Of a DNA stretch of 43,863 nt, positions 2,870-24,230 are shown one piece after another. The first letter of the stretch is position 1. Every line of letters begins with the position of its first letter. Location: UHGV virus genome UHGV-0209067; one strand, 5' to 3'. This DNA comes from a virus. The notes below the pieces were generated by a model, which was not told where the DNA came from, searched no databases, and saw nothing but the letters and a program-made list of their open reading frames with translations. A program made the translations under genes and the position numbers.

Positions 2870-3462
2870 GCGGCGTAACTGAATAATTGTGAGGCGGCGT
2901 TTTCTGCAGCCTGCTGGGTGGGAAATGTGCGGAACAAAATATAATTCCATAGCACATCAAGTACGGATTTATAGAGTTGGGAAAACTCGAGATCGTCCAT
3001 TTTGGCAAACGATATGGATTTGGGTTCGTTGCGGGTCGTACCGTCAGGCATTTCGTATTGAGTATAAAAACCCGCCTCAATAGTTACCCAGGCGCGAAAG
3101 GCTTCAAAGGATTTTACAGCGCTGATATTACCGGCGCGTTTTTCTGCCTCTTCACGCAGATACTGATCAGCCAGCTCCTGGAGTGTTTCTTCATGACCAG
3201 CATAATGGGCCACCAGCTGCACATACCCACGAACCAGTTTTTTATCTGCCGGGGATATTGCACCACCCGACGGTTGCCAGTAATCGAATCCCAGATTCAG
3301 GAGTGCAAAAAATTTTCGGTGAAATGCCGCATTACGTGCCTGTTTAAAGTCAGCATATAAAACAGCACCAAGACGGAATTTTTTCTCGATAAATTCCCGT
3401 GCGTCAGGCGTCGCCGGTATTAATACCCCGCCTGCTGATTTTACAAATGAATACTGCGCCAT
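2866..3462 (-). CDS. conserved nin-region phage protein (possibly DUF1367/YbcN-like)
   Basis: 198 aa ORF translationally coupled (ATGA) to the ybcO-like gene. Position matches nin-region genes of lambdoid prophages. Family assignment from memory only. Confidence 0.45.
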   Translation of the reverse strand: MAQYSFVKSAGGVLIPATPDAREFIEKKFRLGAVLYADFKQARNAAFHRKFFALLNLGFDYWQPSGGAISPADKKLVRGYVQLVAHYAGHEETLQELADQYLREEAEKRAGNISAVKSFEAFRAWVTIEAGFYTQYEMPDGTTRNEPKSISFAKMDDLEFSQLYKSVLDVLWNYILFRTFPTQQAAENAASQLFSYAA

Positions 3463-3529
3463 TGGTTTCCCCTTTAGCGCAGCAATTGCTCAGAAATACT
3501 GGTGCCGGGTGTTCAGTCCGGTACCATAA

Positions 3530-3754
3530 TTATATCTTAGTTTTGCCTCTTTGAACAACGACACAACCTGCTTGTTCTGCCAGTTCTAACAAAGACTTAA
3601 GCGATGCTACATGCTCATCATCGTAGATGTTTCTGAGTGCTGTCACCTTACCATTCTTGCAGGTTATGAGAACGCGACCGTTATCGGGGAGATGTTCCCC
3701 TACCTCCGTCTTTTTGAACACGTTCCCTCCCTCACAAGTATACTGTATAAACAT
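3530..3754 (-). CDS. small protein under a LexA box (candidate SOS-induced antirepressor); true start possibly GTG at 3724
   Basis: 74 aa ORF whose annotated ATG lies inside a consensus LexA box. An in-frame GTG 30 nt downstream is preceded by GAGGGAGGG, which would place the LexA box between the -10 and the RBS. No recognisable domain. Confidence 0.4.
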   Translation of the reverse strand: MFIQYTCEGGNVFKKTEVGEHLPDNGRVLITCKNGKVTALRNIYDDEHVASLKSLLELAEQAGCVVVQRGKTKI

Positions 3755-3760
3755 ACAGTA
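3741..3760. promoter_or_regulatory. LexA (SOS) box TACTGTATAAACATACAGTA
   Basis: Perfect CTGT-N8-ACAG with AT-rich spacer, flanked by TA/TA. Sits in the intergenic region just downstream of the methylase-operon terminator and at the 5' end of the small minus-strand gene. Confidence 0.7.
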
Positions 3761-3851
3761 TATATACTCCCAAGTGGCAGTAAGTGCAAACGTTTAAAGG
3801 CACAAAACGTTAAAAAATCAAGGCTGGTTAATTTGTACCCATCTGTTTAAT

Positions 3852-3909: not shown

Positions 3910-4248
3910 TCACATTGTCAGTTTCACCGCATGCCATCCGTGTGTAACCCAGCACTGAGAATCACCTGCGCACGGGCATGATTTAACCGGGAGCGCATCC
4001 CCGCATTTACCGCAGCGGTTCGCGCTGATTGATTTGATATGCCACTTTACACGCGCATCATCCTGGCGAATGAGAAGCGCGATGTATTCACCCATTTCAT
4101 AGGGTGCGCGGCCCGGTCGACGATCTGCGCAGTTTCGGACAAGCATTTCCATTTCCTGCGCATCCAGCACCAGTTCAAGTTTCCGCTCACCAGCGGCAGA
4201 CTGTCTGGCACGCTGTGCTGCTTTACGCTCTGCTGCTGATTTTGCCAT
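3910..4248 (-). CDS. hypothetical Cys-rich protein, translationally coupled to the C5-methyltransferase
   Basis: ORF track 3910..4272. Probable start MAKSAAERK at 4248, overlapping the methylase stop as TAATG. C-terminal CGKCG...CPCAG...C cluster suggests a Zn-binding module. Confidence 0.45.
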   Translation of the reverse strand: MAKSAAERKAAQRARQSAAGERKLELVLDAQEMEMLVRNCADRRPGRAPYEMGEYIALLIRQDDARVKWHIKSISANRCGKCGDALPVKSCPCAGDSQCWVTHGWHAVKLTM

Positions 4249-6224
4249 TACGCGGCCTCCCTGCTTACACATAATTCAGGCAAATTAGCCCTCACCAGTG
4301 CCTCTGCAAACGGTGGCGGAACAGCGTTGCCACAACGAGCTACCTGCTTGTCCTTCGCGTACTTCTTACCCCGATAGTCCTGGTCGATGATGTACCACTC
4401 AGGGAAGCCCTGCGCGCGGTAAAGTTCATGCGGTTGCAGCATGCGCATGCCAATATCAACGATGCGGTAAGTTATGCCATCAACTGTCACCAGTCCGTCG
4501 CAATCCTCGCCACAGTATTCCTGCAGGAATGCCAGCGTCTGCTGTGCGCGGTACTCGTCATACCCGTCAGCTGCCAATGTGGTTTTTACCTCCCCTACGT
4601 GCTGACCACCAGCGGTGATCGTTGGCATGGGTTCGTCTGTGCGCTGCCCGTCCCGGCATGTACCGCGCAACTTCACCAGGTGTGAGGCAACAACTGCATG
4701 GTGATCAACGGTGGTGACCGAGTGTGCTGGTTCGTCCAACCCGACGCCCGGCCCGGAGTAATTCCCGCCGTAATGCTTCGCCAGGAATGCGCTCACCGTC
4801 GCGAACTTATTGCCGCCAGCAGTAACGGTACCCAGCGGATTGTCCAATTGCAGCACGCGCGGTTCCTGCCCGGGGCGTTCGCCATATCCCATCTGAATCA
4901 ACGTCGGCGTTACCAGTTGCGATTTGCCGCCACCGCCCGCGGTGATAGTCGCGCTTGGCTCGTCGGCCCGGTGGCCGACGCTGGCCCCGAACTGGCGGGC
5001 TATCACTGGCGCAACAAGACATGCGCGGGATTGTTTCAGAATTGTGTGTGCAGGTTTATCCAGCGGGCGTGGTTTAGCCTGGTATTCACTACCACCATTA
5101 CCCGCCAGAAATGGTGTCAGCGCGGCCTCAACAATCCCGAGCGCATGCCCATTCCCGCCTGGGTGTTTTGACGTGCCAGCGGTTACCGTCGGTACCGGTT
5201 CGGTAACGGGCTGGCCGGTTGCACCAGTGCGAAACTTTGTCAGGTGAGGAACGGCTAACGCGTAGCCGTGGGTTTTGGTAATGGTTTGCAAAGGCTCGCC
5301 CAACGCCTGACCACGGAAACAGTCGTAGCTCGTTTTGGTGCTGGTGTGATTGCATTTCACGATGAACGGCGACGCACTGTCGATAACAAAGCGCTGTATG
5401 CCGCGCGCGATCCGCTTCAGGGTATTTTCTGCCAGCTGTTTTTTGCGGTCGAATATCGACGGCGCCGGAATTGTCCAGTCTATACACTCAGCAGCCGTGC
5501 GCCACGGCGCCAGTCTGCCCGACTGAACCGCCGCAGATTTAGGATCCCCATGCGTTGGTTCCGGCCATACAATAGGCTTCCCATCACGGCGCATAACCAT
5601 GAAGAAACGCTTTCTGATTGTCGGTGCGCCGTAGTCACAGGCGCGCAGTTCGCGATACTCGACTACATAGCCCAGGCCTTTTACCAGCCGCGCGGCGTCT
5701 TCGCTATCAAGCGAAATATTCAAAAACTCGCAGCATTCCTCCAGCGCCGGATGGTTCGCCGGGATGCCGGTTGTCAGCATGCCAATAAACGCTTCAAAAG
5801 TTTCGCCCGCGCGGGCTGGGTCAGGTCGCATTTCTCCAGCCAGTAACGGCCCCCACGTTTTAAACTCTTCGACGTTCTCCAGTTTCATTACCCGCGGCTC
5901 AACATCCAGCCCCCAGCGTAATACTACCCAGGCCAGTCCGCGGATCGCTTTCTCAACGGGTTTAGCGCCTTTAGCTTTAGAAAAGTGGCGGCAATCTGGA
6001 GAAAACCACGCCAGCGCCACCGGACGTCCTGCGGTAGCTACCTTTGGTCGAACCTCATACACAGACTCGCAGTAGTGCAACGTATCAGGGTGGTTCGTTG
6101 TATGCATCGCCACGGCGTTCTCGTCGTGGTTAATAGCAATATCAACGCTGCGACCGATCGCCATTTCAATACCGGTTGACGCACCGCCACCACCGGCAAA
6201 ATTATCAACGATGATTTCTCTCAC
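4248..6224 (-). CDS. DNA (cytosine-5) methyltransferase
   Basis: Motif I IVDNFAGGGGASTG (FxGxG), ENV motif (LENVEEF), motif VIII-like TIRKRFFMV, long variable TRD. ORF track gives 4248..6299. A GTG at 6224 overlaps the upstream small-ORF stop (GTGA), suggesting the coupled start. Confidence 0.7.
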   Translation of the reverse strand: MREIIVDNFAGGGGASTGIEMAIGRSVDIAINHDENAVAMHTTNHPDTLHYCESVYEVRPKVATAGRPVALAWFSPDCRHFSKAKGAKPVEKAIRGLAWVVLRWGLDVEPRVMKLENVEEFKTWGPLLAGEMRPDPARAGETFEAFIGMLTTGIPANHPALEECCEFLNISLDSEDAARLVKGLGYVVEYRELRACDYGAPTIRKRFFMVMRRDGKPIVWPEPTHGDPKSAAVQSGRLAPWRTAAECIDWTIPAPSIFDRKKQLAENTLKRIARGIQRFVIDSASPFIVKCNHTSTKTSYDCFRGQALGEPLQTITKTHGYALAVPHLTKFRTGATGQPVTEPVPTVTAGTSKHPGGNGHALGIVEAALTPFLAGNGGSEYQAKPRPLDKPAHTILKQSRACLVAPVIARQFGASVGHRADEPSATITAGGGGKSQLVTPTLIQMGYGERPGQEPRVLQLDNPLGTVTAGGNKFATVSAFLAKHYGGNYSGPGVGLDEPAHSVTTVDHHAVVASHLVKLRGTCRDGQRTDEPMPTITAGGQHVGEVKTTLAADGYDEYRAQQTLAFLQEYCGEDCDGLVTVDGITYRIVDIGMRMLQPHELYRAQGFPEWYIIDQDYRGKKYAKDKQVARCGNAVPPPFAEALVRANLPELCVSREAA

Positions 6225-6493
6225 GCGTATTTCTCCATAGCGGTAGCCAGCGAACATGCTGCGATGATGATGGCCGGAACCGGCATTTTCTCCAGCCACA
6301 TACGGTTGATGTGATGTTTCAGTCGGCGCTGGTGATGTGCCGGGAGATCCCCGGCGTTTTTAACCTGAGAAAAAACCATTTTCACTTCCACTGGCCAAAC
6401 CGTTTCAGAAATATTAGGAAGAAGTAAGGTTTCCAACTCAACAATCCGACGATATGCATAACCCAATAAAGCGCCCTGTAGCTCAGCGTTCAT
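6221..6493 (-). CDS. small hypothetical protein between the two methyltransferases
   Basis: 90 aa ORF with ATGA overlap to the upstream N6A-MTase and GTGA overlap to the downstream C5-MTase. No recognisable domain. Confidence 0.4.
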   Translation of the reverse strand: MNAELQGALLGYAYRRIVELETLLLPNISETVWPVEVKMVFSQVKNAGDLPAHHQRRLKHHINRMWLEKMPVPAIIIAACSLATAMEKYA

Positions 6494-7623
6494 AGTGCCT
6501 CCGCTTTTTCATTTGCATATTTTTTTAACGAGAAAGCCAACCTCGCAGATGCAATGGTTACATAGTCGGGATCAAGGTCGATGCCTACAAAATTGAACCC
6601 CTCTTCAATCGCAGCACGTCCGGTGCTTCCGCTACCCATCCACGGATCCAACACAGTACCGCCAGGCTGAGTGATGAGCCTGCAGAGATATTTCATCAGA
6701 GCTATTGGTTTAACTGTCGGGTGATTATTTTTCGCGCCCTTCGTACGGCCAGCACCGGCGCGCGGATCATTAATACCCGCGCTTCCCTCTTTACGCCCTC
6801 CGGTCATATCACTGGCAGATGTCGCTATAAAACGCTCAAGCCCCTCATCACGTTCGCTCGGTTTTACTTTGGCACAGTAAAAGAATCTGGCGGCACTCCC
6901 TTTGTCGCCGTGGTGAACAGTAGCGACACGCTGACGCATACCAAGAACTTGCCCCGTAGAGGCCGCAGAGGGTTCATTACCTGTTACCGGCGCAGCAGCA
7001 CCAGCATTAGCAGGGAAACAGGCAATCACATCATCACTGCCATCATGGATAATGTTCGCTGGCCAACGGCCTCCCGCAGATTGTTCATAGTCTGCGGCTG
7101 GATCTGTTCCGTCGCGTTGATGAGAAAGCAAACAACCAGAACCACCAGATAATTGCTCTCCGGTTGGAATGCGGCAGGCGTTGATATTAAGTGCGCCGGT
7201 ACCATGCGCTACCATGTTTTCTGCAACCGTCGTTTTAAATGGCTTGCGAGCCATTAAGATTGGTTCATGTGCTGGTTTAAGTGCAGTCCCCCAGCCGTCC
7301 CATTGGCCATCTAGATTATGTGACTTAGGGAAACCACTACCGTAAATCCAAAGAATTTGGTCACGAATTTCGAAACCAGCATCCTCGGCATTTACAACCA
7401 GGCGGTGATAGGTTCGAGACCCACCAAACGCCAGAAGATGACCGCCGGGCTTCAATACACGCAAACATTCCTGCCACTGCTCTACGGATGGAACGTCGTA
7501 ATCCCATTTATGATTTTGAAATGAGAGCCCATAAGGTGGATCAGTAACAATCGAATCGACTGAATTGTCAGGTATTGACTTAAGCACCACCTCACAACGC
7601 CCCACATGCAACTGGTACGTCAT
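6490..7623 (-). CDS. DNA N6-adenine (or N4-cytosine) methyltransferase, beta-class (N6_N4_Mtase)
   Basis: N-terminal DPPY catalytic motif (IVTDPPYGL). C-terminal AdoMet motif LDPWMGSGSTG after HPTVKP. The motif order IV then I defines beta-class amino-MTases. Confidence 0.8.
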   Translation of the reverse strand: MTYQLHVGRCEVVLKSIPDNSVDSIVTDPPYGLSFQNHKWDYDVPSVEQWQECLRVLKPGGHLLAFGGSRTYHRLVVNAEDAGFEIRDQILWIYGSGFPKSHNLDGQWDGWGTALKPAHEPILMARKPFKTTVAENMVAHGTGALNINACRIPTGEQLSGGSGCLLSHQRDGTDPAADYEQSAGGRWPANIIHDGSDDVIACFPANAGAAAPVTGNEPSAASTGQVLGMRQRVATVHHGDKGSAARFFYCAKVKPSERDEGLERFIATSASDMTGGRKEGSAGINDPRAGAGRTKGAKNNHPTVKPIALMKYLCRLITQPGGTVLDPWMGSGSTGRAAIEEGFNFVGIDLDPDYVTIASARLAFSLKKYANEKAEAL

Positions 7624-12773: not shown

Positions 12774-13337
12774 TTATCTCATCAACGACGCACTAACCAC
12801 GCGGCAGTTGTTCAGAAAAACGTTCTGACAGTCTGGAAAGACAGGCAAAGAATTCTGCGGGGCGCCGCCAGTACGCTGACATGCGGGAAAGACCGCACAG
12901 AATTCGATTCGTTGCAGTGGTGGAAGTAGAGAGCAATGGGCGCGTAACACCACACAAGCCCCCTGTCACGGCAGTGAACGCGGTTTCGCTCAGTATCCCG
13001 CGCATAGAACGCCCCGTGAGGCTTAAAGAGCCGCCTGCTCCCCGTTAACGGAGCACCACAATCAAAGAGCGCGGGCTTTAAAAACCATAGTGGCCAACGT
13101 CTGTATTTAGGGAATCCCAATCCCGACGTGTAACTGGGCGCGGCTCGCTCTTTTTGATTGTGGTGAATTGCAGCCGCTTCGACGGCAACCAGAAGATAAG
13201 CATCTGGCGCCACATTCATATATAGCCATTGCTGTGTGTAGTCTTTGCCCAGTCCCTACGATGGGCTCCTTTTTTACACAGTAACTATTTTGTGACCCTT
13301 CGGTGAAAACCGAAGCCCTCGAAGAGAGGGAAGCGGC

Positions 13338-13434
13338 GAGGAAAGACCAAAGAGCCTGACCTGCTCTGACCCCGGGAAAGACCGGGAGGAAAGACCAATG
13401 GGCATGACCAGCCCTGACTGCCGGGAAAGACCGG
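13338..13434 (+). repeat. tandem ~48-bp direct repeat (2 units) carrying GAGGAAAGACCAA and GGGAAAGACCGG sub-motifs
   Basis: Unit 1 13338-13385 and unit 2 13386-13434 are alignable. Preceded by two adjacent stem-loops (13298-13330). A third partial copy sits at 13532. Confidence 0.5.
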
Positions 13435-13667
13435 CAAACTTTAGACGTAAAAAAGCCCACCTGAGTGGGCTGATTTACCCCAGCGGAGACCAATCCGCCA
13501 GGAAGGTGCCACAGGGGACCAACCCTGTAGCGAGGAAAGACCAATGCAGGACAGAGCCAACACTGATCGGCTCTGAGTATACATCACTAAGGAGCCGCTA
13601 TGGAAGCGCTTGCCATACCAGTAAAGCTGTACATTCACTACCATACCCAAACGTTTTCTTCGGATAA
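13398..13667 (+). CDS. possible small basic Pro/Arg-rich protein (uncertain; N-like antiterminator?)
   Basis: 89 aa ORF beginning exactly at a GAGGAAAGACCAATG motif. Low-complexity and basic. Overlaps the next gene out of frame. Could be non-coding leader. Confidence 0.2.
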   Translation: MGMTSPDCRERPANFRRKKAHLSGLIYPSGDQSARKVPQGTNPVARKDQCRTEPTLIGSEYTSLRSRYGSACHTSKAVHSLPYPNVFFG

Positions 13668-13923
13668 ATACATCGTCGCCACCTGTGACATGTCACGCAA
13701 CTTTCCGGACACCTACGTTTTGTTGGAAACCCGTGAAATTACCCTTGATATAAACCACCCTGAGCCATTCGACATCATTGCTCTGCAGGTCGACCAGCTG
13801 CGCGGCCAGAAAGAAACGATTGCGGCGGAAGCACAACGTCAAATTGACTGTGTCGACGACAAAATTCAGCAACTGCTTTGCATTGATCACACCCCTGTTC
13901 AGGAAAGCGATATCCCATTTTGA
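13600..13923 (+). CDS. hypothetical early protein
   Basis: 107 aa ORF with good RBS (AAGGAG, 7 nt). First convincing gene of the early-left operon. Confidence 0.5.
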   Translation: MEALAIPVKLYIHYHTQTFSSDKYIVATCDMSRNFPDTYVLLETREITLDINHPEPFDIIALQVDQLRGQKETIAAEAQRQIDCVDDKIQQLLCIDHTPVQESDIPF

Positions 13924-13968
13924 TCAGCCGGCGCCAGACCAGCGCCAGTAACCAAAGAGGAAAGACCA

Positions 13969-16242
13969 ATGACCATCTACAACGGCTTATTTGAGCCAAA
14001 AAAATCAGCGGTTAAAGATTGCGGGGCCGTTCAGCTGGCGATCGCAATTGATGCGCCAAACAAAAAAGTGGCAGAAAGCATTATGACCGGCAAACTCTGG
14101 GAAGCCTACCCAGCCAACGGTGACAACTATTTCAAACCCAAGTTATGGGAACATGCTGAAGGTCTGCCGTTGCCGGCTGTTGGTAAGTTCGATGAACAAT
14201 TTGCCCTGGCACACACATTCGACGGGGAAAAATGGGTCATCAACGAACAGGAGACCAACGTTTCAAACCTGCCAGCCAGTAACGAGATTATCGATCTGGC
14301 AAAGCTACCATCCCGGGAACGCTTCGCGGCCGTCCTTATGTTCAGCGATTCTCCCATCGATGGAGTTCTTTACTCTCAGGTGCTGGATTATCTCGATAAT
14401 CTTGAAAATAACGATGAATCCTTTGATGAGGATGATCGGGTTAATCTCAATATTCTCCACGCGCTGCACAATAACGAACCCGTGCAACATATGCATGTTG
14501 AAGGGCTGAATAATCTCATTCAGGCCATTTACGCAAACTTTGAAGATCAAACACCGGGTAAGGCTGCGATTTCACAATTTATTAAACGCTGGCTGGAAAA
14601 CCCAAGTAAGCGTGATGAGATGGTGCCAAACAAAACATCATCACTTAGTACCTGCGTTAAAAATGACAATGTCGTTGTGGCACCACAACGTGGTTATAAA
14701 CACACCTACGCAACACTGGATCAGGAAATTGCCGTTGCCCTACTTCCCATCGCTCCTGATGCGCCTGTGTTATCAGGAAATCTCCGTGATGCGGAAAAAA
14801 TGATTTCTGATGACCGTGAGGATTTCAAACGTTGGTCAGCGGCATTGCGTACTACCGAGCAGATTCTCAAATATGACCGTCCAAGTATCTTTGGGGTTAT
14901 TCAGAATGTCCCATCTAAAGATACATACCATTTCCCTGAGTCACTGCGACGCCATATTGATTCATGGCTCGCTGAACATGGTCAACTCGAATGTGCCGAA
15001 ACGGATGCAGAAAGAACCAGCAAGCAGCTTGCGGCAGAACGCGGCGAATATGTGGAAGGTATCAGCGACCCTAATGATCCTAAATGGGTTAAAACCGATA
15101 CCCAACCACAGGATTCAACCCACGATGACGGAACACTTTCGCGTGATGGAACTATGCCTGAAACAGCCTCAAATGAAGGTGAAAAACCGGAAGTGACAGA
15201 ACAGGAAAAAGTTACAGAAGACCAAGCGGAACAAGCTCGTGAAACGCTAAACAATATGGGTTACGGAGTATATGCGACCAGCCAGGAGACTGCTGACCAA
15301 CCGAATGAAAATCTGGGCGATAAAGTGAAAGCTCTCGTTCAGGATGTGGATCAGCTCGTCGAGCGTGTTAAGCGTGAAGAATCGCTTCCTCAGGCGTCTG
15401 AACTGGTTAAGAGTATTAATGAAATGCAGGCTGGCGAAAACGACAACCTGGAGTTGTGGAAAGAAGTTTTCAAAACAGATGAGCGCTTTACCTCCGCATT
15501 CTCTGTGAATGGCGGCGGAACCTCAATCAATGGCACCTACATGACCATGATCGCTACCCGCGAATTTGGTCCGAAAGGTATCGGCTGGGGTGTGGATATT
15601 CTTGAAGAACGCTTTGACGATGGCGCGCCAATTACTCGCACAGTCAAAGGGGTTGACGGTAATAACACATGGGAACTCATCCCGGACGGTATCGGTGGCG
15701 TCCTTACAGAAAAACACCACGTTATCAAAATCAGTCTTTGGTACATCCGGAATGGTGCGCGCGGTGAAGAGATTTCATTCGGGTGTACCCCGTATATTTA
15801 CGGCAGCAAATACGGCCCAATTTGCGATGGTGAAGCGACAAAAAAATCACTGACTGACGCAACCAAGAAAGCATTGTCTGCACTCGGTTTCTGCGCGGAT
15901 ATTTTCATGGGCCTGTACGATAACCCGGAATATCGCCAGAGAAATAAAGCTGAATTTGCACTCAAAAACGCCAGCGAAAACGCAGAGGATGCAGCCCGCG
16001 TACGTCAGGAACTGGACGATAAACTGACCCGAGTAGCAAATACTCTTGCATCAGCTGTGTCTGAGAACGAGATCAATAAGGTTTATTCTTCGATTGCCCG
16101 TGAAGCAGAGGTGCATCGCAAGGACGCAGAAGCGAAGGGAGACACGCAGCATGCGCGCTATTTAAGTGGGCGCCTGCGTCGCCTGACAACCATCAAAGAT
16201 GAACGTATCGCTGAACTGAACAAAGCCCAGGAGAATGCATAA
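13969..16242 (+). CDS. Rad52/Sak-family single-strand annealing protein fused to a ~500-aa N-terminal domain of unknown function
   Basis: C-terminal GCTPYIYGSKYGPICDGEATKKSLTDATKKALSALGFCADIF matches the Rad52/Sak signature (KSKA...TDA.KRAL..FG). The N-terminal ~450 aa plus an acidic linker have no recognisable motif. Starts at a GAGGAAAGACCAATG motif. Confidence 0.65.
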   Translation: MTIYNGLFEPKKSAVKDCGAVQLAIAIDAPNKKVAESIMTGKLWEAYPANGDNYFKPKLWEHAEGLPLPAVGKFDEQFALAHTFDGEKWVINEQETNVSNLPASNEIIDLAKLPSRERFAAVLMFSDSPIDGVLYSQVLDYLDNLENNDESFDEDDRVNLNILHALHNNEPVQHMHVEGLNNLIQAIYANFEDQTPGKAAISQFIKRWLENPSKRDEMVPNKTSSLSTCVKNDNVVVAPQRGYKHTYATLDQEIAVALLPIAPDAPVLSGNLRDAEKMISDDREDFKRWSAALRTTEQILKYDRPSIFGVIQNVPSKDTYHFPESLRRHIDSWLAEHGQLECAETDAERTSKQLAAERGEYVEGISDPNDPKWVKTDTQPQDSTHDDGTLSRDGTMPETASNEGEKPEVTEQEKVTEDQAEQARETLNNMGYGVYATSQETADQPNENLGDKVKALVQDVDQLVERVKREESLPQASELVKSINEMQAGENDNLELWKEVFKTDERFTSAFSVNGGGTSINGTYMTMIATREFGPKGIGWGVDILEERFDDGAPITRTVKGVDGNNTWELIPDGIGGVLTEKHHVIKISLWYIRNGARGEEISFGCTPYIYGSKYGPICDGEATKKSLTDATKKALSALGFCADIFMGLYDNPEYRQRNKAEFALKNASENAEDAARVRQELDDKLTRVANTLASAVSENEINKVYSSIAREAEVHRKDAEAKGDTQHARYLSGRLRRLTTIKDERIAELNKAQENA

Positions 16243-16796
16243 TGACTACTGCAATCGCGTTAGCTGCTGACTACACCAACCTTCTGCAATTGCTGGAAAG
16301 CTCTGATGAACTAACTCCGGAGATGATCACCGATACACTGGAAGGAATTGAAGGTGAACTGGCGGATAAGCTGGATGCCATCATGGTCATCGCGCGTAAT
16401 AACCTCGGCCATGCCAAAACATGCGATGAAGAAATAAAGCGCCTGGCTGAGCGTAAAAAGTCTTTCGAAAATAAAGATAAAACGCTTCGTAAATATATTC
16501 TGTCTTGCCTGCTTGCTGCCAATCTGGACAAGCTCAAGACCCCTAAGAATAGCTTTACTGCCCGTAAAGGTAGCGTCAGCGTTGTTATCGACAACGAAAA
16601 GCTATTACCGGATGAGTTGGTTACTGTTCAGACGATTGTCGCTCCGGACAAAAAAGCCATCAAAGAAGCGATCGAGGCTGCGGAAGCTGCCGCAGCACAA
16701 ATCACTGCCGATGGTGGTGAAGTGCCAGCAGAACTGTTAAATCCGGTACCGGGTGCCCACCTTGAGATCGGCGAACGCTCACTACAGGTACGATAA
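16242..16796 (+). CDS. Sipho_Gp157-family protein (partner of Sak/Rad52 recombination modules)
   Basis: 184 aa. Pattern LLQLLESSDELTPEMITDTLEGIEGEL...SVSVVIDNEKLLPDELVTV...PDKKAIKEAIEAAEAA is typical of Gp157. TAATG coupling to the SSAP gene. Confidence 0.6.
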   Translation: MTTAIALAADYTNLLQLLESSDELTPEMITDTLEGIEGELADKLDAIMVIARNNLGHAKTCDEEIKRLAERKKSFENKDKTLRKYILSCLLAANLDKLKTPKNSFTARKGSVSVVIDNEKLLPDELVTVQTIVAPDKKAIKEAIEAAEAAAAQITADGGEVPAELLNPVPGAHLEIGERSLQVR

Positions 16797-16798
16797 CT

Positions 16799-16981
16799 AT
16801 GCTGAAACTATCCCTCAAACGTGGCGATGCGGTTCACGTAGTATTTTCAGATGGCAGTAACGGCATTATTGAAGCTCGTAGCCGTTGCGAGTTGGGAATG
16901 CACCTGCCGAAAAGCGTTAAAGTGACGCGAGAGAAAGGCGCATTCCTACCCGAAAACCTGATTAAGCGTAATCAGAAATAA
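16799..16981 (+). CDS. small hypothetical protein
   Basis: 60 aa ORF whose 3' end contains the 25-bp repeat also found at 11954. Confidence 0.4.
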   Translation: MLKLSLKRGDAVHVVFSDGSNGIIEARSRCELGMHLPKSVKVTREKGAFLPENLIKRNQK

Positions 16982-17030
16982 AACCACACTATCGCTAGCA
17001 TTGTGGCCTCACCCAATACAGGAGGCTGCA

Positions 17031-17237
17031 ATGCTGCGATGGCAACCCAGAGCTACTCTGCTCACAGATTTCGATATAAAGATTGGCCGGTTATCGGCAA
17101 GCGTACGAAAGAAGACTCTGACCCAGTCAGACATCGAACGCGCATGCAGTGATGCTGATGATGCCGTGTACCGGATGATGAGGAAAGACCAACATGGCCA
17201 GAGAAAACGACCTGCTAACAGACGCAGAACTGATTGA
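17031..17237 (+). CDS. hypothetical protein (start at AGGAGG-preceded ATG)
   Basis: ORF track 17001..17237. An ATG at 17031 is preceded by AGGAGG with 6-nt spacing. Overlaps the xis-like start. Confidence 0.35.
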   Translation: MLRWQPRATLLTDFDIKIGRLSASVRKKTLTQSDIERACSDADDAVYRMMRKDQHGQRKRPANRRRTD

Positions 17238-17418
17238 GTTTACCGGTTATCAGAAAGCATCAAAACAAAGGGAAATTCTCGACCGCGGCGGCGTCTCGTA
17301 CATACCGGACCGGGAAGGTCGCCCAATGGTTACCTGGACGCACATTAACGCTGTATTGAACGGGCAGATCACCGTACAGACCAGCACAGAAGAAAAACCC
17401 GATTTCGGAGCTATTTAA
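17194..17418 (+). CDS. excisionase-like protein (DUF4224 family)
   Basis: 74 aa. LTDAELIEFTGYQKASKQREILDRGGVSYIPDREGRPMV resembles DUF4224 proteins found directly upstream of enterobacterial prophage integrases. Stop abuts the int ATG. Confidence 0.6.
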   Translation: MARENDLLTDAELIEFTGYQKASKQREILDRGGVSYIPDREGRPMVTWTHINAVLNGQITVQTSTEEKPDFGAI

Positions 17419-18441
17419 ATGGGGCGCAGAAGAAAGGATCCTGGAGATAACAAACTGCCGCCGCGCGTATCCAAAACAAAAACGCGTTACTACTACAAAC
17501 CCACGTCACGAGAGACCGTGACACTGGGGCCAATCACTCTCACTATGTCAGCATTATGGAAACGGTATGAGGAAGAACGACGGAATTACTCAGATGTAAT
17601 GACGTTCGAAAAGCTCTGGGGAATGTTTCTCAAAAGCGCCTACTACACAGAGCTGGCAATACGAACCCAGCGTGACTATCTGCAACATCAGAAAAAACTA
17701 CTCGCTGTATTCGGCAAGGTTAAAGCTGACATAATCAAACCTGAAGACGTGCGGCAGTTTATGGATCGTCGTGGTCTGCAAAGTAAGAATCAGGCCAACC
17801 AGGAAATGAGCAGCATGTCTCGCGTTTACCGCTGGGGATATGAGCGCGGATATGTGAAGGGAAACCCCTGTGCCGGCGTCAGCAAATTTTCTCTCAAGGC
17901 TCGTGAGCAATACATCACTGACGAAGATTATCTGGCAATTTATAAACATGCAGATCACGTCGTCAGAGCCGCAATGGAAATATCTTACTTATGCGCCGCG
18001 CGACAAGCTGACGTACTCGAACTACGTTGGATGCAGATATCTGATAAAGGGATTTTTATCCAACAGGGCAAAACCGGGAAAAAACAGATAAAGGTCTGGA
18101 CACATCGCCTGCAGGAAGCGCTGGAAACGGCACAGGTAGCCTGTCCGAAGCTTTCACCTGACGCATTGGTTCTCTATAACAGCGATCGCGGCCAGTTCAT
18201 CCGCAAGACATTCAATAATCGCTGGCTAAAGGCTGTGCGGGCCGCACAGAGTGAACTTAACCGGCAACTGGATTACACATTCCACGACATTAAGGCAAAA
18301 GCTATCTCAGATTTTGAAGGGAGCAGCAGGGATAAGCAGATATTTAGCGGACACAAGACTGAAAGCCAGGTGCTTATTTATGACAGAAAAGTGCAAATTA
18401 GCCCTAGCCTTGATAAACCGCTAATTAATAAAATTACTTAA
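17419..18441 (+). CDS. int: tyrosine integrase (lambda/P4 Int family)
   Basis: 340 aa. N-terminal arm-binding region. C-terminal catalytic region with R...HDIKAKAIS (box II) and the LIYDR tyrosine motif. Follows the xis-like gene. Confidence 0.9.
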   Translation: MGRRRKDPGDNKLPPRVSKTKTRYYYKPTSRETVTLGPITLTMSALWKRYEEERRNYSDVMTFEKLWGMFLKSAYYTELAIRTQRDYLQHQKKLLAVFGKVKADIIKPEDVRQFMDRRGLQSKNQANQEMSSMSRVYRWGYERGYVKGNPCAGVSKFSLKAREQYITDEDYLAIYKHADHVVRAAMEISYLCAARQADVLELRWMQISDKGIFIQQGKTGKKQIKVWTHRLQEALETAQVACPKLSPDALVLYNSDRGQFIRKTFNNRWLKAVRAAQSELNRQLDYTFHDIKAKAISDFEGSSRDKQIFSGHKTESQVLIYDRKVQISPSLDKPLINKIT

Positions 18442-19720
18442 GCAATTGAGTCATAAACACATCGATGAAACAATTAAAATATGAAATCACAGAAGGATGG
18501 AATTTAAACATATACACACCTAAAGAAATCATAAATGGCAAAGCAGATATAATCAGCAAAAACACCATTGCGGCATCTAAACCCCTTGCTTGAGAATAGA
18601 GGTTCTTTTTATGCTTTGAAATTAGTTCTGCAAGTTCCCCACTCCTCTGGGCTTTTGTATGGCTAAATAAAGCATCTATTGAATTCATGATCGATTTAAG
18701 TACTTTTTTTTGGTCATAAATAGTAAGCGCAATTAACAGGGATGTTATTGCAACACCTAACAAGGCTAAGATGCTTTCAAATTTACCTGTATTTAAAATG
18801 GCTACAGCCACAGCAAAAGAAATTGGAAGCCCAAATAACTTGCCAGATATAGACGAAAGAGTACCTGAGATTTTGGAAGAAACAGTCATGTAATTTTCCG
18901 CTGCTTCTTTTTTCTGTTTCAAAAATGAAAAGTTAGTTAAATAACATTCAAAGTTCCCGTAATATGTTTCTTTCAATAACTCCCATTGTTCAATCAGAAA
19001 ATTAAATTTATCCTTACTCTCATCTATATCTTTAAGCACCTCAATAATTGACACCCTAAACATAGCTTGTTTTTCTTGAATGTGAGCATTATCCGTTCCA
19101 TTTTCCTTTATACTTTTAAAGATAGCCAAGTCAACCATAGGAAAAGAAATGCTTTCAATAGTTATTCTGGGTTCAATAACAATCGGCGATGTTTTTTTCG
19201 AGTTGCTAGTATCAATGAATACAAGTTTTAGCAGACCACTATGCTCTACACGATCGTTATAATTCGCTAAGTCATAAAGTTCTGTAATAAATTTTGAAAG
19301 CTGTAACGCCTTCAGAACTTGTTCATTGTTTGAGTTTACCTCACCAAATAAAAAATCCTCTTTTACAAGGTAAACATTCTCAACTCGACCACCAGTATTT
19401 AAATTATTATCTATGAGTAAAAAATCTTCTAATGACTCAATAAACTTAAAATCACCAACAGGTAACGACACTGTTAGAATAACATCTTTATCTGCTGTCA
19501 GACTGTCAGGAAAAACATCTTCATAGCATGTACCACAGGATATTGAGTCAAAAATCAACTCAAAATCTGCAATGCTCTGATCCGCGTTATTCCATAAGTC
19601 TTTAAAAATGTCGAACTGGGTAGTAAGTTGTCCTCTATATTCGAATGAGCAGTTAATAACAGAAGGTTTTCCTAACCCTCTGTAAAATGCAACCAACTTT
19701 TCAAAATATCTCGAGGACAT
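18434..19720 (-). CDS. cargo gene B: ~270-aa soluble N-terminal domain (unknown) + C-terminal three-TM membrane region; effector-like
   Basis: 428 aa. Hydrophobic helices LFGLPISFAVAVAILNTG, ILALLGVAITSLLIALTIY and AAMVFLLIISALPFMISLGVYMF near the C-terminus. Visibly AT-rich. 3-nt spacing to gene A. Convergent 8-bp overlap with the int stop. Confidence 0.6.
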   Translation of the reverse strand: MSSRYFEKLVAFYRGLGKPSVINCSFEYRGQLTTQFDIFKDLWNNADQSIADFELIFDSISCGTCYEDVFPDSLTADKDVILTVSLPVGDFKFIESLEDFLLIDNNLNTGGRVENVYLVKEDFLFGEVNSNNEQVLKALQLSKFITELYDLANYNDRVEHSGLLKLVFIDTSNSKKTSPIVIEPRITIESISFPMVDLAIFKSIKENGTDNAHIQEKQAMFRVSIIEVLKDIDESKDKFNFLIEQWELLKETYYGNFECYLTNFSFLKQKKEAAENYMTVSSKISGTLSSISGKLFGLPISFAVAVAILNTGKFESILALLGVAITSLLIALTIYDQKKVLKSIMNSIDALFSHTKAQRSGELAELISKHKKNLYSQARGLDAAMVFLLIISALPFMISLGVYMFKFHPSVISYFNCFIDVFMTQLLK

Positions 19721-19723
19721 AAT

Positions 19724-20875
19724 TTACCCTTCGTTCTTGAGTGCGTCTTCTAGCTTCTGGATTGTATTATCATCCAACTGAGAAATTATTAATTTTTTTT
19801 CTTTACGCAAATACTGAATTACAGAACCTGCCTGTTCACCGAAGAATTTCTTTTCAAAACTTAACTCCCATCCATTGGATTTTGTCCTGACTTTAGTTCT
19901 TTTGTTTACGACAGCCCTATTTATAGCAAACTCTAATGGAACCCCTATTTCTTCGCCATTGAGATACTCAACTAAATTGTCGATATTAGCATGTTTCCCT
20001 GCCGGCACAGCTTGTCTTACAATATGCTCAATTTCGGCCAGAGAAGCAGTTTCCCCCGGTTTTTTCTCTTTTAGATGGTACAGCACAGCATCGTAAGCGG
20101 CATTTTTATACGCTTTGATATCTGCGTGTGCATCAAAGTAACTTCTAACACCATTGAGAACTGCGTCTGTAGCTTTAGCTGAGGGGACACTATCTGAACA
20201 TCCCAGAGCTGCGACGAAATACCCAGAAGCATCCTGATTCACTTTGGGGCTAACAAATGCTAAATAAGTGGGCTTTTCATCATCGGGAAGTGTTTCAAAC
20301 AAGTGAAACCTATCAAAGTTAACACGCGCAGCCTGATGAATTTTTGCTAAGTCAATTTGAACCGTCCCCACTGGCTTTAGGTTCTCATCCAAACGCAGCG
20401 CATCCTTCTGTTTAACCATAGTAATCAGAAGGAAATGGGATTGACCACGAGTATAGTGAGCAAAGACTATGGCCCCGCCAGATGCAGCCACTCTAGTGGG
20501 ATCTTTAGCTTGGCGAGATAGTTCACTCATGCAAGTTAACGAGAACTTGTGGAAATCATCGGATGAAGCTGCCCCGCCATAATACGTTTTAAAAGCAGTA
20601 GGTACTTTAAACGTCACATCCTCGGAATCGAAGGTTCCTCGTGCGGCCTGATTCTCTTTTTTACCGATCAAGTCGTTCAAAGATTCTATCAACTGACAAA
20701 CGTGTTTATCATCGCTCGGAAGCACCGGCTTGATTGTTGTTTCAACTTTCTGCCTGCCACTCTCTTTGACTAGCTCATGAATTACGCAGTGTCGTAAATT
20801 AAAATCCATCTTTTCTACCTTAACATTGCTGTTAATAGTCAAATCATGACCATAAAAGTGCTCACATGAACACAT
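19724..20875 (-). CDS. cargo gene A: nucleoid-associated protein NdpA/YejK family (NA37)-like
   Basis: Alignable to E. coli YejK blocks: [11 protein letters not shown] vs [31 protein letters not shown] vs [47 protein letters not shown] vs [24 protein letters not shown]. Likely start MDFNLRH at 20809 (RBS AAGGTAG). AT-rich. Confidence 0.6.
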   Translation of the reverse strand: [383 protein letters not shown]

Positions 20876-20980
20876 ACTGCTATGTAGTTTAGAAGGTTAC
20901 AAGTTCGGGTTAAAATGATTTTTTATGCAGTTTTGAGGTAGGTCGAATTCTTTGAGGATATTCTTTTTTTATTCTTTGCT

Positions 20981-21016
20981 TCAAAAACAAAGGGGTTAGC
21001 ATTTAGCTAACCCCTT
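20981..21016 (-). terminator. strong intrinsic terminator immediately 3' of the tRNA fragment (minus strand)
   Basis: 11-bp perfect stem AAGGGGTTAGC/GCTAACCCCTT with a 5-nt loop, followed on the minus strand by TTTGTTTTTG. Confidence 0.65.
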
Positions 21017-21024
21017 GTTAAATT

Positions 21025-21084
21025 TGGCGGAAGCGTAGAGATTCGAACTCTAGAACCCTTTCGGGTCGCCGGTTTTCAAGACCG
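21025..21084 (-). other. attP core: 60-nt 3' portion of tRNA-Ser(UGA) (anticodon stem-loop through CCA), no 5' half present
   Basis: Minus strand reads CGGTCTTGAAAACCGGCGACCCGAAAGGGTTCTAGAGTTCGAATCTCTACGCTTCCGCCA: anticodon loop CTTGAAA (UGA), long variable arm, T-loop GTTCGAATC, CCA end. Matches enterobacterial serT except for two compensating T-stem changes. Upstream sequence is unrelated to a tRNA 5' half. Confidence 0.7.
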
Positions 21085-21243
21085 AAAAATAATACTTAAA
21101 AATCAAACCTATAACACAATAAAAAAGAATAACATCAATGTACAAAGCACATCAAAAACAATACATTAGGCACAACGCAAACAGCGATATTCTTCGAAAT
21201 TATGCACTATGTCTTGACTGATTATCTGCTATTGATGATAGTG

Positions 21244-21261
21244 ACTGTATAAAAACACAGT
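21244..21261. promoter_or_regulatory. LexA (SOS) box ACTGTATAAAAACACAGT upstream of the 87-aa gene
   Basis: Perfect CTGT-N8-ACAG. Lies between a TTGACT(21214)-17 nt-GATAGT promoter-like element and the GAGG RBS of the ATG at 21274. Confidence 0.65.
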
Positions 21262-21273
21262 GATGAGGCTATC

Positions 21274-21537
21274 ATGAAAAACAGAGAGTCCAATGTCAGC
21301 AGCCTACAAGAATTAGCCAATTTTGACATCGGCTATTCCTTGCTCACAAATGAAATCTATCTGTCCGCATCATTCATCGATAACATGGCCTGCATCCCAC
21401 ATTGGCCAGTAAAGGAGTTCCCAGACCAGTTTATGTGTATCTCACGTACTCGTGCAGAAGAATTGATAAAGGAGTTACAGAAAGCAATACACTACATGGA
21501 TGCAGGCATTGATAACCCCCATGGTAAGTTCAACTAG
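21274..21537 (+). CDS. small protein under LexA control (candidate antirepressor / SOS-induced moron)
   Basis: 87 aa ORF with a GAGG RBS. AT-rich. Located between attP and the invertase. Convergent 4-bp overlap with the invertase stop. No recognisable domain. Confidence 0.45.
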   Translation: MKNRESNVSSLQELANFDIGYSLLTNEIYLSASFIDNMACIPHWPVKEFPDQFMCISRTRAEELIKELQKAIHYMDAGIDNPHGKFN

Positions 21538-22100
21538 TTTCCGACCTCACATATAGACACAGGGAATTTTTTGTACAGTGTAGATACTCCAACATCGTAA
21601 ATAATTGAAACCTGCTTTCGATCCATTCCATTTTTTATCAAACGTCTCATTTGCGCCCATTCTTCACTACTAAATTTTGGGCGCCTTCCACCAATACGTC
21701 CTTCTGCGCGTGCGGCTGCTAAACCGGCCCGGGTGCGTTCGACAATAAGCTCTCTTTCCATTTCAGCCAGCGCGCCCATTACATGAAAGAAGAATCTCCC
21801 CATAGGTGTACTCGTATCGATGCTATCCGTCAGGCTCCGGAAGTTAACCCCTTTCTCCCGCAGTTCCTCCACTAACACAACAAGATGTCGCATGCTGCGG
21901 CCGAGGCGATCCAGTTTCCACACCACCAGCGTATCCCCTTCTGATAGCGTCCTGAGCACCTTTTTTAAGCCGGGCCTGTCAGACGTTTTTCCACTTATCT
22001 TGTCTTCGAAAATCAGCTCACATCCTGCACTCTCGAGCGCATTTCTCTGGAGTGCTGTGTTCTGGTCATTTGTTGACACGCGTACATAGCCAATCAGCAT
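21534..22100 (-). CDS. serine recombinase, DNA invertase (Hin/Gin/Cin/Pin family)
   Basis: 188 aa. N-terminal resolvase catalytic domain MLIGYVRVSTNDQNTALQ (Ser nucleophile). C-terminal HTH QVSIIYDVGVSTLYKKF. Adjacent to opposed tail-fibre gene pairs. Confidence 0.9.
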   Translation of the reverse strand: MLIGYVRVSTNDQNTALQRNALESAGCELIFEDKISGKTSDRPGLKKVLRTLSEGDTLVVWKLDRLGRSMRHLVVLVEELREKGVNFRSLTDSIDTSTPMGRFFFHVMGALAEMERELIVERTRAGLAAARAEGRIGGRRPKFSSEEWAQMRRLIKNGMDRKQVSIIYDVGVSTLYKKFPVSICEVGN

Positions 22101-22129
22101 GATAAATCCCTTCGCTAAAAGCTGGGATC

Positions 22130-22711
22130 ATGCCATCTGTACCTGAAATATTCATTTTCGCAAACGTTGGAATAGGAGAAACAGGAAAATACAACATTCT
22201 GCCAGCCTCAAGAGGCGGCACAGGTGCGTCAACTATAGCCGGAGCAAAAGCGAATCTTGGGATTGGTGGTGTGGCAAATGAAGATATTGTGCCAGTGAGT
22301 AAAGGCGGTTCTGGTGCAACAAACGTCGCTGGTGCATTGCTTAACTTTGGCCTGAGTGATTTAGTGACGGCCGGATTATCGCAGGTGGAATCCGGCACAG
22401 ACTTTATTTCTGTTAAGATTCCGTTTCTGTCAGGTGGTAACAAGCGATTCCTGATGATTCATGCCATCAAGGCGACAATGCCTGCAAATAATAACGGGTA
22501 TAACCTTACTGTTACATTCCCGACTGCCTATGATAATGCACCGATACCAATTCTTGGCTCGACCGTAGGGCTGACTTCAACAACGGGTGGTACCACAGAG
22601 TCAATGAATATTTCATCCGTCACAAAATCGGGTTGCATCATTTCTTCAGCATGGCAAACATGGTCTGAGGGCCAGGTATATCTTTTAACGATTGGAGGAG
22701 TTGCAGCATGA
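22130..22711 (+). CDS. alternative tail-fibre C-terminal segment (opposite orientation)
   Basis: 193 aa. GGTGA/GGSGATN repeats and an NKRF...TIGGVAA end, homologous to the C-terminal part of the minus-strand fibre. The in-frame region extends upstream to 22106 without an ATG, as expected for an S'v-type segment. Confidence 0.55.
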   Translation: MPSVPEIFIFANVGIGETGKYNILPASRGGTGASTIAGAKANLGIGGVANEDIVPVSKGGSGATNVAGALLNFGLSDLVTAGLSQVESGTDFISVKIPFLSGGNKRFLMIHAIKATMPANNNGYNLTVTFPTAYDNAPIPILGSTVGLTSTTGGTTESMNISSVTKSGCIISSAWQTWSEGQVYLLTIGGVAA

Positions 22712-23094
22712 AATATTATTCACCTTCAATTAATGGATTTCCCGAACAACAGACTGATGACAGTATTGAGATCAGTGAAGAGGTCTGGAGAATACTTCTT
22801 AGTGAAATTTACTCAGGCCGTGAGTTATTTAACGATGACGGTATGCCTGCTACCCGCATCCCCCAACCTACACAAGAGCAGATTATTGCTGCCGCTGAAA
22901 ATGAGCGTCAGCGATTGCTGGCTTATGCTGATACTGTAATGCTCGACTGGCGAACAGAATTGATGCTGGGTGAAATCAGCGACGCCAACAGGGCTAAATT
23001 GTCGGCGTGGCTGGCTTATAAAAATGAAGTTAAGTCGGCTGATGTGACAACCGACCCTGAGCATGTTAACTGGCCTGTTCCCCCGGAGGTGTAG
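22708..23094 (+). CDS. tail-fibre assembly protein (alternative copy, Tfa')
   Basis: 128 aa. C-terminal DANRAKLSAWLAYKNEVKSADVTTDPEHVNWPVPP matches the Tfa family C-terminus. Overlaps the fibre segment as ATGA. Converges with the minus-strand tfa. Confidence 0.65.
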   Translation: MKYYSPSINGFPEQQTDDSIEISEEVWRILLSEIYSGRELFNDDGMPATRIPQPTQEQIIAAAENERQRLLAYADTVMLDWRTELMLGEISDANRAKLSAWLAYKNEVKSADVTTDPEHVNWPVPPEV

Positions 23095-23482
23095 GCCATA
23101 CGGGTTTTGCTGTATCAACGCGCATCAGCAATACCCGGTATTTTTTCCACTCAGCAAGCGCGGCGGTTTCAACTCCCGTCGCTATTCCTGCATCAACAGC
23201 GTCCCGACGCCAGTCAATCTCTGAGTCTGCCTGTATACGTAAATTGGTCTTTTTTAATTCAGCGGCAGCGCTAAGTTCTTCCTTAGTTGGTGGGGGAATA
23301 TCCACCCATGCTGGCATACTATTATCGTCTGTTCCGCGTATTTTACCCACAGGTGGTGATGCAGAGAATTCAGTAAATACAGATTCATCAACTTCAATAT
23401 ATTCAATCGGCCATGAATCAGAAGCTTCATAAACTTCCCGCATTGAAAACGGGTAAAAATTACCATTAGAAAATGCGTACAT
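23066..23482 (-). CDS. tail-fibre assembly protein (Tfa)
   Basis: ORF track 23066..23506. Likely start MYAFSNGNF. C-terminal KKYRVLLMRVDTAKPVWPTPPGE is typical of Tfa/gpG/U chaperones. Follows the tail-fibre gene. Confidence 0.65.
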   Translation of the reverse strand: MYAFSNGNFYPFSMREVYEASDSWPIEYIEVDESVFTEFSASPPVGKIRGTDDNSMPAWVDIPPPTKEELSAAAELKKTNLRIQADSEIDWRRDAVDAGIATGVETAALAEWKKYRVLLMRVDTAKPVWPTPPGEQAS

Positions 23483-23489
23483 AATTATC

Positions 23490-24230
23490 TTAACCTCCAA
23501 TCGCAATCCACAGCGCAGTGTAGTTGCTGGTTCCCCATGTACTTACATCACACCCACTTCTGTCACCTTCCGTAAAAACTGGAGTCGCCGGATTAACGGT
23601 GAAGCCGCTACCAACTGGTGATGCAGCAAGAACAAAGCGTTTATTTGGAAAGGGGATCGGATATGTAATACGTGAACCTGTAGTACCGATGATAGATACC
23701 CGTCCCCACTGCACAACCACACCACTTGGCAACAGAAAATATCCGGCGTTATCCAGCGATCTGCCAAAGAAACTCATATCAGGGATCTGATTTGCACCTG
23801 TGCCAACCCCCCTTTTTGCCGCTTCTCCCAATTGAAGGTTTGCGAGACCGTTTTTTGACGTTAATACAGGAGTCCATTTTGCTGATGGCGGCTGGCTACC
23901 AATATTTGCATTTTGTAAGGACTGATAAGATTCACCGTTATGTGTGCAGATCGAACCGATATGATACTCCTGTTCTGCATGCCACTCTGGAACCCCCATT
24001 TGGTGCTGATACGCAATGAACTGACTCATTGCATACATTGCCGCATTGAAGTCCTCAAGCGAGGGGTGTTCGGAAGCGCCAACAATTCCCCATCCGCGAA
24101 GGAAAGATGCCGTGATCTGCGAGGTCAGGTCATCTGCCTGATTTGTTCCACCAAAAACGGTTCTTTCCATTCCCTGTGCATCAGAGGCAAAAGCCCGAAC
24201 ATTTCCCTGATATCGTGCAATCTTAGACAT
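23490..24230 (-). CDS. tail fibre protein
   Basis: 246 aa. Follows the gp48-like baseplate gene. C-terminal domain homologous to the plus-strand alternative segment. Followed by tfa. Confidence 0.6.
   Translation of the reverse strand: MSKIARYQGNVRAFASDAQGMERTVFGGTNQADDLTSQITASFLRGWGIVGASEHPSLEDFNAAMYAMSQFIAYQHQMGVPEWHAEQEYHIGSICTHNGESYQSLQNANIGSQPPSAKWTPVLTSKNGLANLQLGEAAKRGVGTGANQIPDMSFFGRSLDNAGYFLLPSGVVVQWGRVSIIGTTGSRITYPIPFPNKRFVLAASPVGSGFTVNPATPVFTEGDRSGCDVSTWGTSNYTALWIAIGG

Follow-up and report, generated by a model that had tools for sequence, protein, structure and literature searches.

We analyzed a 43,863-nucleotide stretch of viral DNA, UHGV virus genome UHGV-0209067 (the whole of it referred to here as the window), which is the genome of a temperate member of the Caudoviricetes. 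On its minus strand at 18434-20875, between the integrase gene and the phage attachment site (attP), lie two adjoining genes that we call A and B. A encodes a YejK/NdpA-like protein of the NA37 family and B a putative membrane effector. We put the probability at roughly three in four that the pair is a divergent prophage-borne abortive-infection system of the kind represented by DS-1 and type II PANGU, and that it would benefit the lysogen, not phage propagation. This estimate draws on homology and on comparison with the published systems. A first-pass annotation of the window had proposed that a DNA-binding NA37 sensor and a membrane effector act together here in defense or abortive infection, and both the homology to DS-1 and the architecture of type II PANGU argue for that proposal. 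The same annotation knew of no described system built on an NA37 protein. That part was mistaken: DS-1 was posted as a preprint in January 2025 and reached Science in 2026, and a preprint on PANGU followed in April 2026. NA37-based defense has already been validated and studied mechanistically, and the window pair does not represent a new type of system.

The A-B gene pair and its products

Gene A (19724-20875, minus strand) encodes 383 amino acids from its first ATG and is the putative sensor gene, the counterpart of Pag2A in type II PANGU and of DS-1A. Gene B (18434-19720, minus strand) follows it and encodes 428 amino acids; its product is the counterpart of Pag2B and DS-1B. Both open reading frames (ORFs) are intact. 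Only 3 nt (19721-19723) separate the TAA stop codon of A from the ATG of B, so the two genes form an operon in which translational coupling is likely. The true start of A is probably the ATG at 20809, which would give a protein of 361 amino acids, because the Pfam, NCBIfam YejK and PHROG models all align to protein A from about residue 23 and nearly all of its homologues are annotated at 361 amino acids.

The surroundings of the pair were largely as first described, with the two minus-strand genes placed between the integrase and an attP tRNA fragment and a convergent overlap on the integrase side. At its 3' end B overlaps by 8 nt with the convergent tyrosine integrase gene (17419-18441, plus strand; Pfam Phage_integrase, E 5.6e-11), which we treat as context outside the defense pair. 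On the other side, A is followed in the upstream direction by the 3' fragment of a tRNA-Ser(UGA) gene. The pair had also been called AT-rich against phage DNA of about 50% GC, and its GC content is indeed 0.373 (0.334 for B and 0.418 for A) compared with 0.494 for the window. This AT-rich stretch continues past the pair to about 21300. The low GC content and the site beside attP fit a horizontally acquired cargo.

Protein A matched the Pfam NA37 model (PF04245) with an E value of 9e-42 and 144 bits against a cut-off of 24.6, over profile positions 1-323 of 325. This full-length match above the gathering score places it in the NA37 / YejK-NdpA superfamily, the family to which it had been assigned from the start. 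NA37 proteins bind DNA without sequence specificity, as is established for YejK. Protein A also matched PHROG 3767 (E 5e-60) and the PDB entry for YejK (9be2_A, E 1e-11), and a Kyte-Doolittle scan with a 19-residue window found no hydrophobic segment in it. Against the NCBIfam equivalog model for YejK itself (NF001557) it scored 113.5 bits, short of the cut-off of 341. This score, the operon link to B and the carriage on mobile elements mark A as a divergent paralogue, distinct from the YejK of the chromosome. The housekeeping YejK/NdpA protein (NF001557; PDB 9be2) thus shares the NA37 fold family with A over the full length, but differs from it in all three of these respects (113 vs 341 bits).

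Protein B had no Pfam domain. Sub-threshold Pfam matches to LANC_like, DUF2672 and Cas_GSU0054 (E 0.06-0.4) were dismissed as noise. The protein matched PHROG 5023 (E 3e-38), and its exact sequence is recorded as DAI48446.1 from a Caudoviricetes metagenome-assembled genome (MAG). We predicted transmembrane (TM) helices of B and its relatives from Kyte-Doolittle hydropathy. With a 19-residue window, B has hydrophobic segments at residues 290-309, 312-337 and 378-407 (1.9-2.5, with a maximum of 2.47), so that residues 290-407 comprise two to three predicted C-terminal TM helices. An AlphaFold2 model of B with a predicted local distance difference test (pLDDT) score of 85.4 consists of an alpha/beta domain from residue 1 to about 205 and then long helices up to residue 427, and the hydrophobic segments fall in long helices of this model. 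The alpha/beta domain and the long helices at 211-295 make up an acidic soluble region; residues 1-285 carry a net charge of -16 with a pI of 4.63. A soluble domain of about 270 residues followed by three TM helices had been expected for B, and an acidic soluble region of about 285 residues followed by three hydrophobic segments, as judged by hydropathy, agrees well with this.

Relatives of B share these properties. In the B family the first hydrophobic segment lies at about residue 284, at least two such segments are present in 157 of 167 full-length members, and a net negative charge ahead of the TM part (median -13) was found in all 164 full-length members in which a hydrophobic segment could be detected. 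In a PDB fold search, the whole model of B had no significant match among solved structures, nor did a second model made of the isolated N-domain (pLDDT 80). When PDB sequences were searched with the B profile, nothing meaningful emerged; we treated 8zue_B, 'Anti-bacteriophage protein B', at E 0.58 over 48 residues, as a chance match.

Linkage of the pair and its carriage on mobile elements

An NA37 gene lay directly upstream of the B relative in all 18 fetched loci in which such a relative is encoded, which represent about nine independent lineages and in which the identity of B to the window protein ranged from 89% down to 25%. In all relatives the A-B junction was either a gap of 0-4 nt or a short overlap. 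The expectation that A and B travel as a unit therefore held in every locus. The identities of the two proteins to their window counterparts fell together (A/B 88/89, 72/59, 62/43, 59/40, 33/28 and 27/25%), and this co-divergence is compatible with a physical interaction between A and B, although it is no proof of one. Homologues of B were spread across the Enterobacterales, and a full HMMER scan with the B-family profile gave 897 cluster representatives (50% identity) at E ≤ 1e-3 and 185 at E ≤ 1e-30. A contig scan with two short peptide patterns taken from the B alignment yielded 2 loci only, and genomic context was taken from the B-encoding contigs instead.

The pair was carried on mobile elements of several kinds. 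The same prophage family held it at tRNA-Ser (loci L003 and L005-L008), integrase islands held it at tRNA-Thr (L004 and L009), another prophage had it at its tail-fiber end (L012), and in L014-L016 it was part of an integrative and conjugative element (ICE). In Escherichia coli NCTC 13148 (L001; NZ_OZ510750.1, 11877-15028) an 81%-identical pair lies beside tRNA-Phe in a different integrase island, and gene A is interrupted there by IS1, leaving an inactivated copy. Genes of nuclease or defense type found near the pair included an OLD-family nuclease (L010, 149-1969), an AAA_15/21 and HNH pair in an ICE (L014, 14464-16261) and an HSDR_N protein encoded upstream (L019, 3550-4635). In L017 and L018 a staphylococcal-nuclease-like gene (3232-3789) lies 90 nt downstream of B, and it might be a third member of the operon in that lineage.

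This mobile carriage could also be read as the mark of a maintenance or exclusion module, either addiction (toxin-antitoxin-like) or superinfection exclusion (Sie) at the membrane, with no abortive infection involved. The pair is always found on mobile elements, whether prophages, islands or an ICE, and B is a predicted membrane protein, as are many Sie proteins. However, the IS1-disrupted copy in NCTC 13148 persists and its island has not obviously been lost, which argues against strict addiction. To our knowledge, no described Sie protein works with a DNA-binding partner in the cytoplasm, and this counts against exclusion. The homologous DS-1 system, moreover, conferred protection when carried on a plasmid outside any prophage, and the two genes of type II PANGU were both needed but not toxic singly. 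We consider a maintenance or exclusion role very unlikely.

The attachment site bears on how the pair came to lie where it does. The first-pass annotation had named an attP tRNA fragment on this side, and three lines of evidence show that the name was correct: the features of the tRNA sequence, its match in E. coli genomes and the complete tRNA gene in integrated relatives. The attP core lies on the minus strand at 21024-21084 (3' boundary approximate) and comprises the 3'-terminal ~60 nt of tRNA-Ser(UGA), spanning the anticodon stem through to the CCA end. Read from about 21084, this strand presents the anticodon loop CUUGAAAA, the T-arm and the ...GCCA end. ARAGORN found no complete tRNA in the window because only this 3' portion is present. 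A 125-bp block containing the tRNA fragment and an adjoining hairpin has a match of about 90% identity in every one of the 5,426 complete E. coli genomes, beside yccA, which is the serT locus. In the integrated relatives (Salmonella/Citrobacter L005-L008 and Pluralibacter L003) a complete tRNA-Ser(UGA) gene lies immediately upstream of A, and the homology of the window to these relatives starts 28 nt into that gene. An Rfam search of the att region gave RAGATH-19 and Afu_182 at chance level (E 0.5-1); its printed alignment revealed the tRNA-like sequence.

A strong terminator had been reported at the same place. A hairpin of the intrinsic-terminator type does exist (20990-21016, minus strand), with an 11-bp stem, 6 GC pairs and a T-run, but it belongs to the tRNA-Ser gene, lies upstream of A within the attP homology block and is not the terminator of the A-B operon. 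Read-through from the tRNA-Ser gene reconstituted in a lysogen would need to cross this hairpin to reach A.

A related prophage in E. coli A8 uses the same att site, and there the integrase lies about 120 bp from att with nothing between them. The pair thus behaves as insertable cargo. It had been viewed as prophage cargo at the int-att junction from the outset, and its carriage on mobile elements as a linked unit is in keeping with that view.

These observations also bear on whether the pair might serve phage propagation, with A organizing phage or host DNA, or tethering it to the membrane through B, in replication or lysogeny. Tethering of DNA by a nucleoid-associated protein (NAP) and its membrane partner is conceivable in principle, and the pair is after all encoded in a phage genome. 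Yet the same pair occurs in islands that are not phages and in an ICE, the A8 prophage has no such genes at the same att site, the composition of the pair is foreign to the phage, and both partners are homologous to those of a validated defense system. We regard a role in propagation as the least probable of the explanations considered.

Relationship to DS-1 and type II PANGU

DS-1 is an experimentally validated E. coli defense system from the DefensePredictor study (bioRxiv 10.1101/2025.01.08.631726, January 2025; Science 2026, PMC13092281), which names 'a YejK nucleoid-associated domain' among its newly validated defense domains (PMC13092281). The system (working id D390) consists of WP_000355468.1, an NA37 protein of 391 amino acids, followed by WP_000150292.1 of 404 amino acids. 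Its -log efficiency of plating (EOP) values were 7.6 for Bas1, 2.7 for Bas26, 1.7 for Bas3 and T3, and about 1 for T5 and T7 (PMC13092281). The paper offers no mechanism.

The window pair significantly matched both members of a pair of NCBIfam models, NF053868 ('nucleoid-associated anti-phage protein') and NF053869 ('anti-phage protein'). Protein A aligned to NF053868 (DS1_1_antiphage) over positions 20-367 of 369 with an E value of 2.5e-39 and 135.3 bits (cut-off 330), and protein B aligned to NF053869 (DS1_2_antiphage) over positions 52-313 of 337 with an E value of 3.4e-16 and 59.3 bits (cut-off 315). Both scores are below the equivalog cut-offs, making A a homologue of its DS-1 counterpart and not an equivalog. 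Direct comparison gave the same relationship. A is 23% identical to DS-1A by BLASTP (E 5e-12) and B is 28% identical to DS-1B over 117 residues (E 9e-7), and hhalign of the B family against DS-1B gave 93% probability and an E value of 2.7e-7 over 219 columns. The operon layout of DS-1, in which the NA37 gene comes first (220602-221777) and the gene for a partner of about 400 amino acids follows at a tight junction (221780-222994), recurs in the window with its 3-nt gap.

In both two-gene operons the partner has an acidic soluble N-terminal region and C-terminal hydrophobic helices. The window pair is nonetheless distinct, by its divergence from DS-1 and in three further respects. Window A lacks the zinc-ribbon-like CxxC...CxxC extension found at the N-terminus of DS-1A; the TM module of window B is more hydrophobic, the segments of DS-1B being weaker (maximum Kyte-Doolittle value 1.56 vs 2.47); and DS-1 lies on the E. 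coli chromosome, whereas the window pair lies at the int-attP junction of a Citrobacter/Salmonella-type prophage.

PANGU systems were defined by Li et al. in an April 2026 preprint (bioRxiv 10.64898/2026.04.06.716658), which is the source for all that follows on them in this paragraph. Type II PANGU is bicistronic and encodes a YejK-like NAP (Pag2A) and an effector (Pag2B) that has a C-terminal TM domain and, at its N-terminus, an acidic DNA mimic called the 'DMK' domain. These operons ('Cluster 2' NAP operons) are mobile, linked to defense islands and widely distributed. PANGU-Ecu required both genes, neither of which was toxic alone, and had an abortive-infection phenotype. Pag2A fused to green fluorescent protein (GFP) departs from the nucleoid upon T4 infection, the DMK domain of Pag2B binds Pag2A with a dissociation constant (KD) of 19 nM, and T4 escapes through mutations in EndoII. 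The two PANGU systems studied were active on T4 and Bas34 and gave no protection against T1 or T5, both of which degrade host DNA. The activation step of Pag2B is unsolved in the preprint.

The window pair resembles type II PANGU in design. A bicistronic operon with a YejK-like NAP was found in all 18 loci, B has a predicted C-terminal TM domain given by its three hydrophobic segments, and residues 1-285 of B are acidic like the DMK domain and may or may not mimic DNA as it does. Type I PANGU (Pag1A with the GRel toxSAS Pag1B) shares the same class of YejK-like NAP sensor, and there too the NAP binds an acidic domain of the effector, but its effector is a soluble (p)ppGpp-synthesizing toxSAS and B has no such domain. 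Type II PANGU is the best available mechanistic model for the window pair.

Carried over from the PANGU work, the mechanism would run as follows. Protein A would normally be held on bulk chromosomal DNA and would be set free once an infecting phage breaks down the chromosome of its host. Free A could then bind the acidic soluble N-terminal region of B, and this binding would switch on the C-terminal TM module. The module would in turn damage the membrane or its energization, and the infected cell would be stopped before the phage cycle is completed. We infer the anti-phage activity of the window pair, its trigger, the contact between A and B and the membrane action of B from these comparisons.

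The same architecture could instead answer to another trigger, if A directly recognized phage DNA as it enters or replicates, or else a protein of the phage. DS-1 acts most strongly on Bas1, Bas26, Bas3 and T3, and PANGU on T4 and Bas34 with no effect on T1 or T5. Because these phage ranges differ, and because T1 and T5 degrade host DNA yet escape, trigger specificity varies among members. Protein A, moreover, is only 23% identical to DS-1A and is without its CxxC...CxxC segment. On the other hand, the sole mechanistic data on NAP-effector systems, namely the EndoII escapers of T4 and the relocation of Pag1A- and Pag2A-GFP, indicate relocation after genome damage. The DNA binding of NA37 proteins is also sequence-nonspecific, and A shows no sign of a module dedicated to the recognition of phages. 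Direct recognition of the phage is, in our judgment, quite unlikely.

A further variant treats the window pair as a divergent subfamily, only ~25% identical to DS-1, in which B would be a CorA-like oligomeric channel gated by free NAP on its acidic cytoplasmic domain, the trigger would be something other than degradation of host DNA, and different phages would be blocked. We hold this variant to be doubtful. The CorA/MRS2 Mg2+ channels, together with the CorA-type effectors of type III CRISPR, were among the known systems set beside the pair; B had no significant structural match to the CorA fold.

Several points weigh against an abortive-infection system of the DS-1 / type II PANGU kind. Neither protein comes near its equivalog cut-off (135 vs 330 bits for A and 59 vs 315 bits for B), so that the function of the window pair is transferred across 23-28% identity. 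Its identity with the 'Cluster 2' operons of PANGU would rest on architecture and on the link through DS-1. The acidity of the soluble region of B is real but not extreme (pI 4.6). On the minus strand at 20876-20990, which separates A from the tRNA terminator, a simple scan detected no clear sigma-70 promoter. PADLOC v2.0.0 (2023) matched neither protein, but its database predates the DS-1 and PANGU papers, and its blank result therefore says nothing against defense.

The phage around the pair and the meaning of the find

The exact integrase protein of the window is shared with Citrobacter braakii and a Caudoviricetes MAG. The 90% clusters occur on hundreds of contigs, and the phage type is common in Salmonella and Citrobacter. 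When 17400-22200 was compared with phage records by megablast, only the invertase and tail-fiber end was matched, and no part of the A-B pair was covered, among the matches listed. In the Salmonella/Citrobacter relative L006, a Mu-like transposable element (13087-17287) takes the place of the early region of the sister loci; it encodes an HTH_Tnp_Mu_1 / Mu-transpos_C transposase, a TniB-like ATPase and a DUF3164 protein.

Beyond the att core, AT-rich DNA leads up to an invertase gene and contains an ORF of 87 amino acids (21274-21537, plus strand) with no Pfam match, which may be another small cargo element. The invertase is a Gin/Cin-type serine enzyme (21534-22100, minus strand; Resolvase and HTH_7 domains). 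It is followed by short, opposed ORFs for tail-fiber tips at 22130-22711 and 22708-23094 on the plus strand and at 23066-23506 and 23490-24230 on the minus strand, the last with a Gp53-like_C match. As in Mu, P1 or P2-like phages, the region 21534-24230 probably serves as an invertible segment that sets host range; the only inverted repeats found were weak (42 nt, 71%). Elsewhere in the window, a DNA methyltransferase of 683 amino acids (4248-6299, minus strand) has a C5-cytosine methylase match at its C-terminal end, preceded by a long unassigned N-terminal region, and close to it lies an N6/N4 methylase gene (6490-7623, minus strand). Both phage methyltransferases are likely to be anti-restriction functions.

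The window thus points to a defense architecture of NAP and membrane effector that would be carried as int-attP cargo by temperate phages common in Salmonella and Citrobacter. The partner family is large, with its 897 representatives, and was always paired with NA37 in the loci examined. The genes are now annotated as 'hypothetical protein' and 'nucleoid-associated protein', and it would be possible to re-annotate them as a DS-1/PANGU-II-like defense pair. The means by which the NAP switches on the membrane effector, and the action of that effector, are questions for the whole family and not for this locus in particular. Much of the remaining interest lies in that activation step and in the fold of B, which has no solved relative. 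The confident structural model of B could help to work out how effectors of the Pag2B type are activated.

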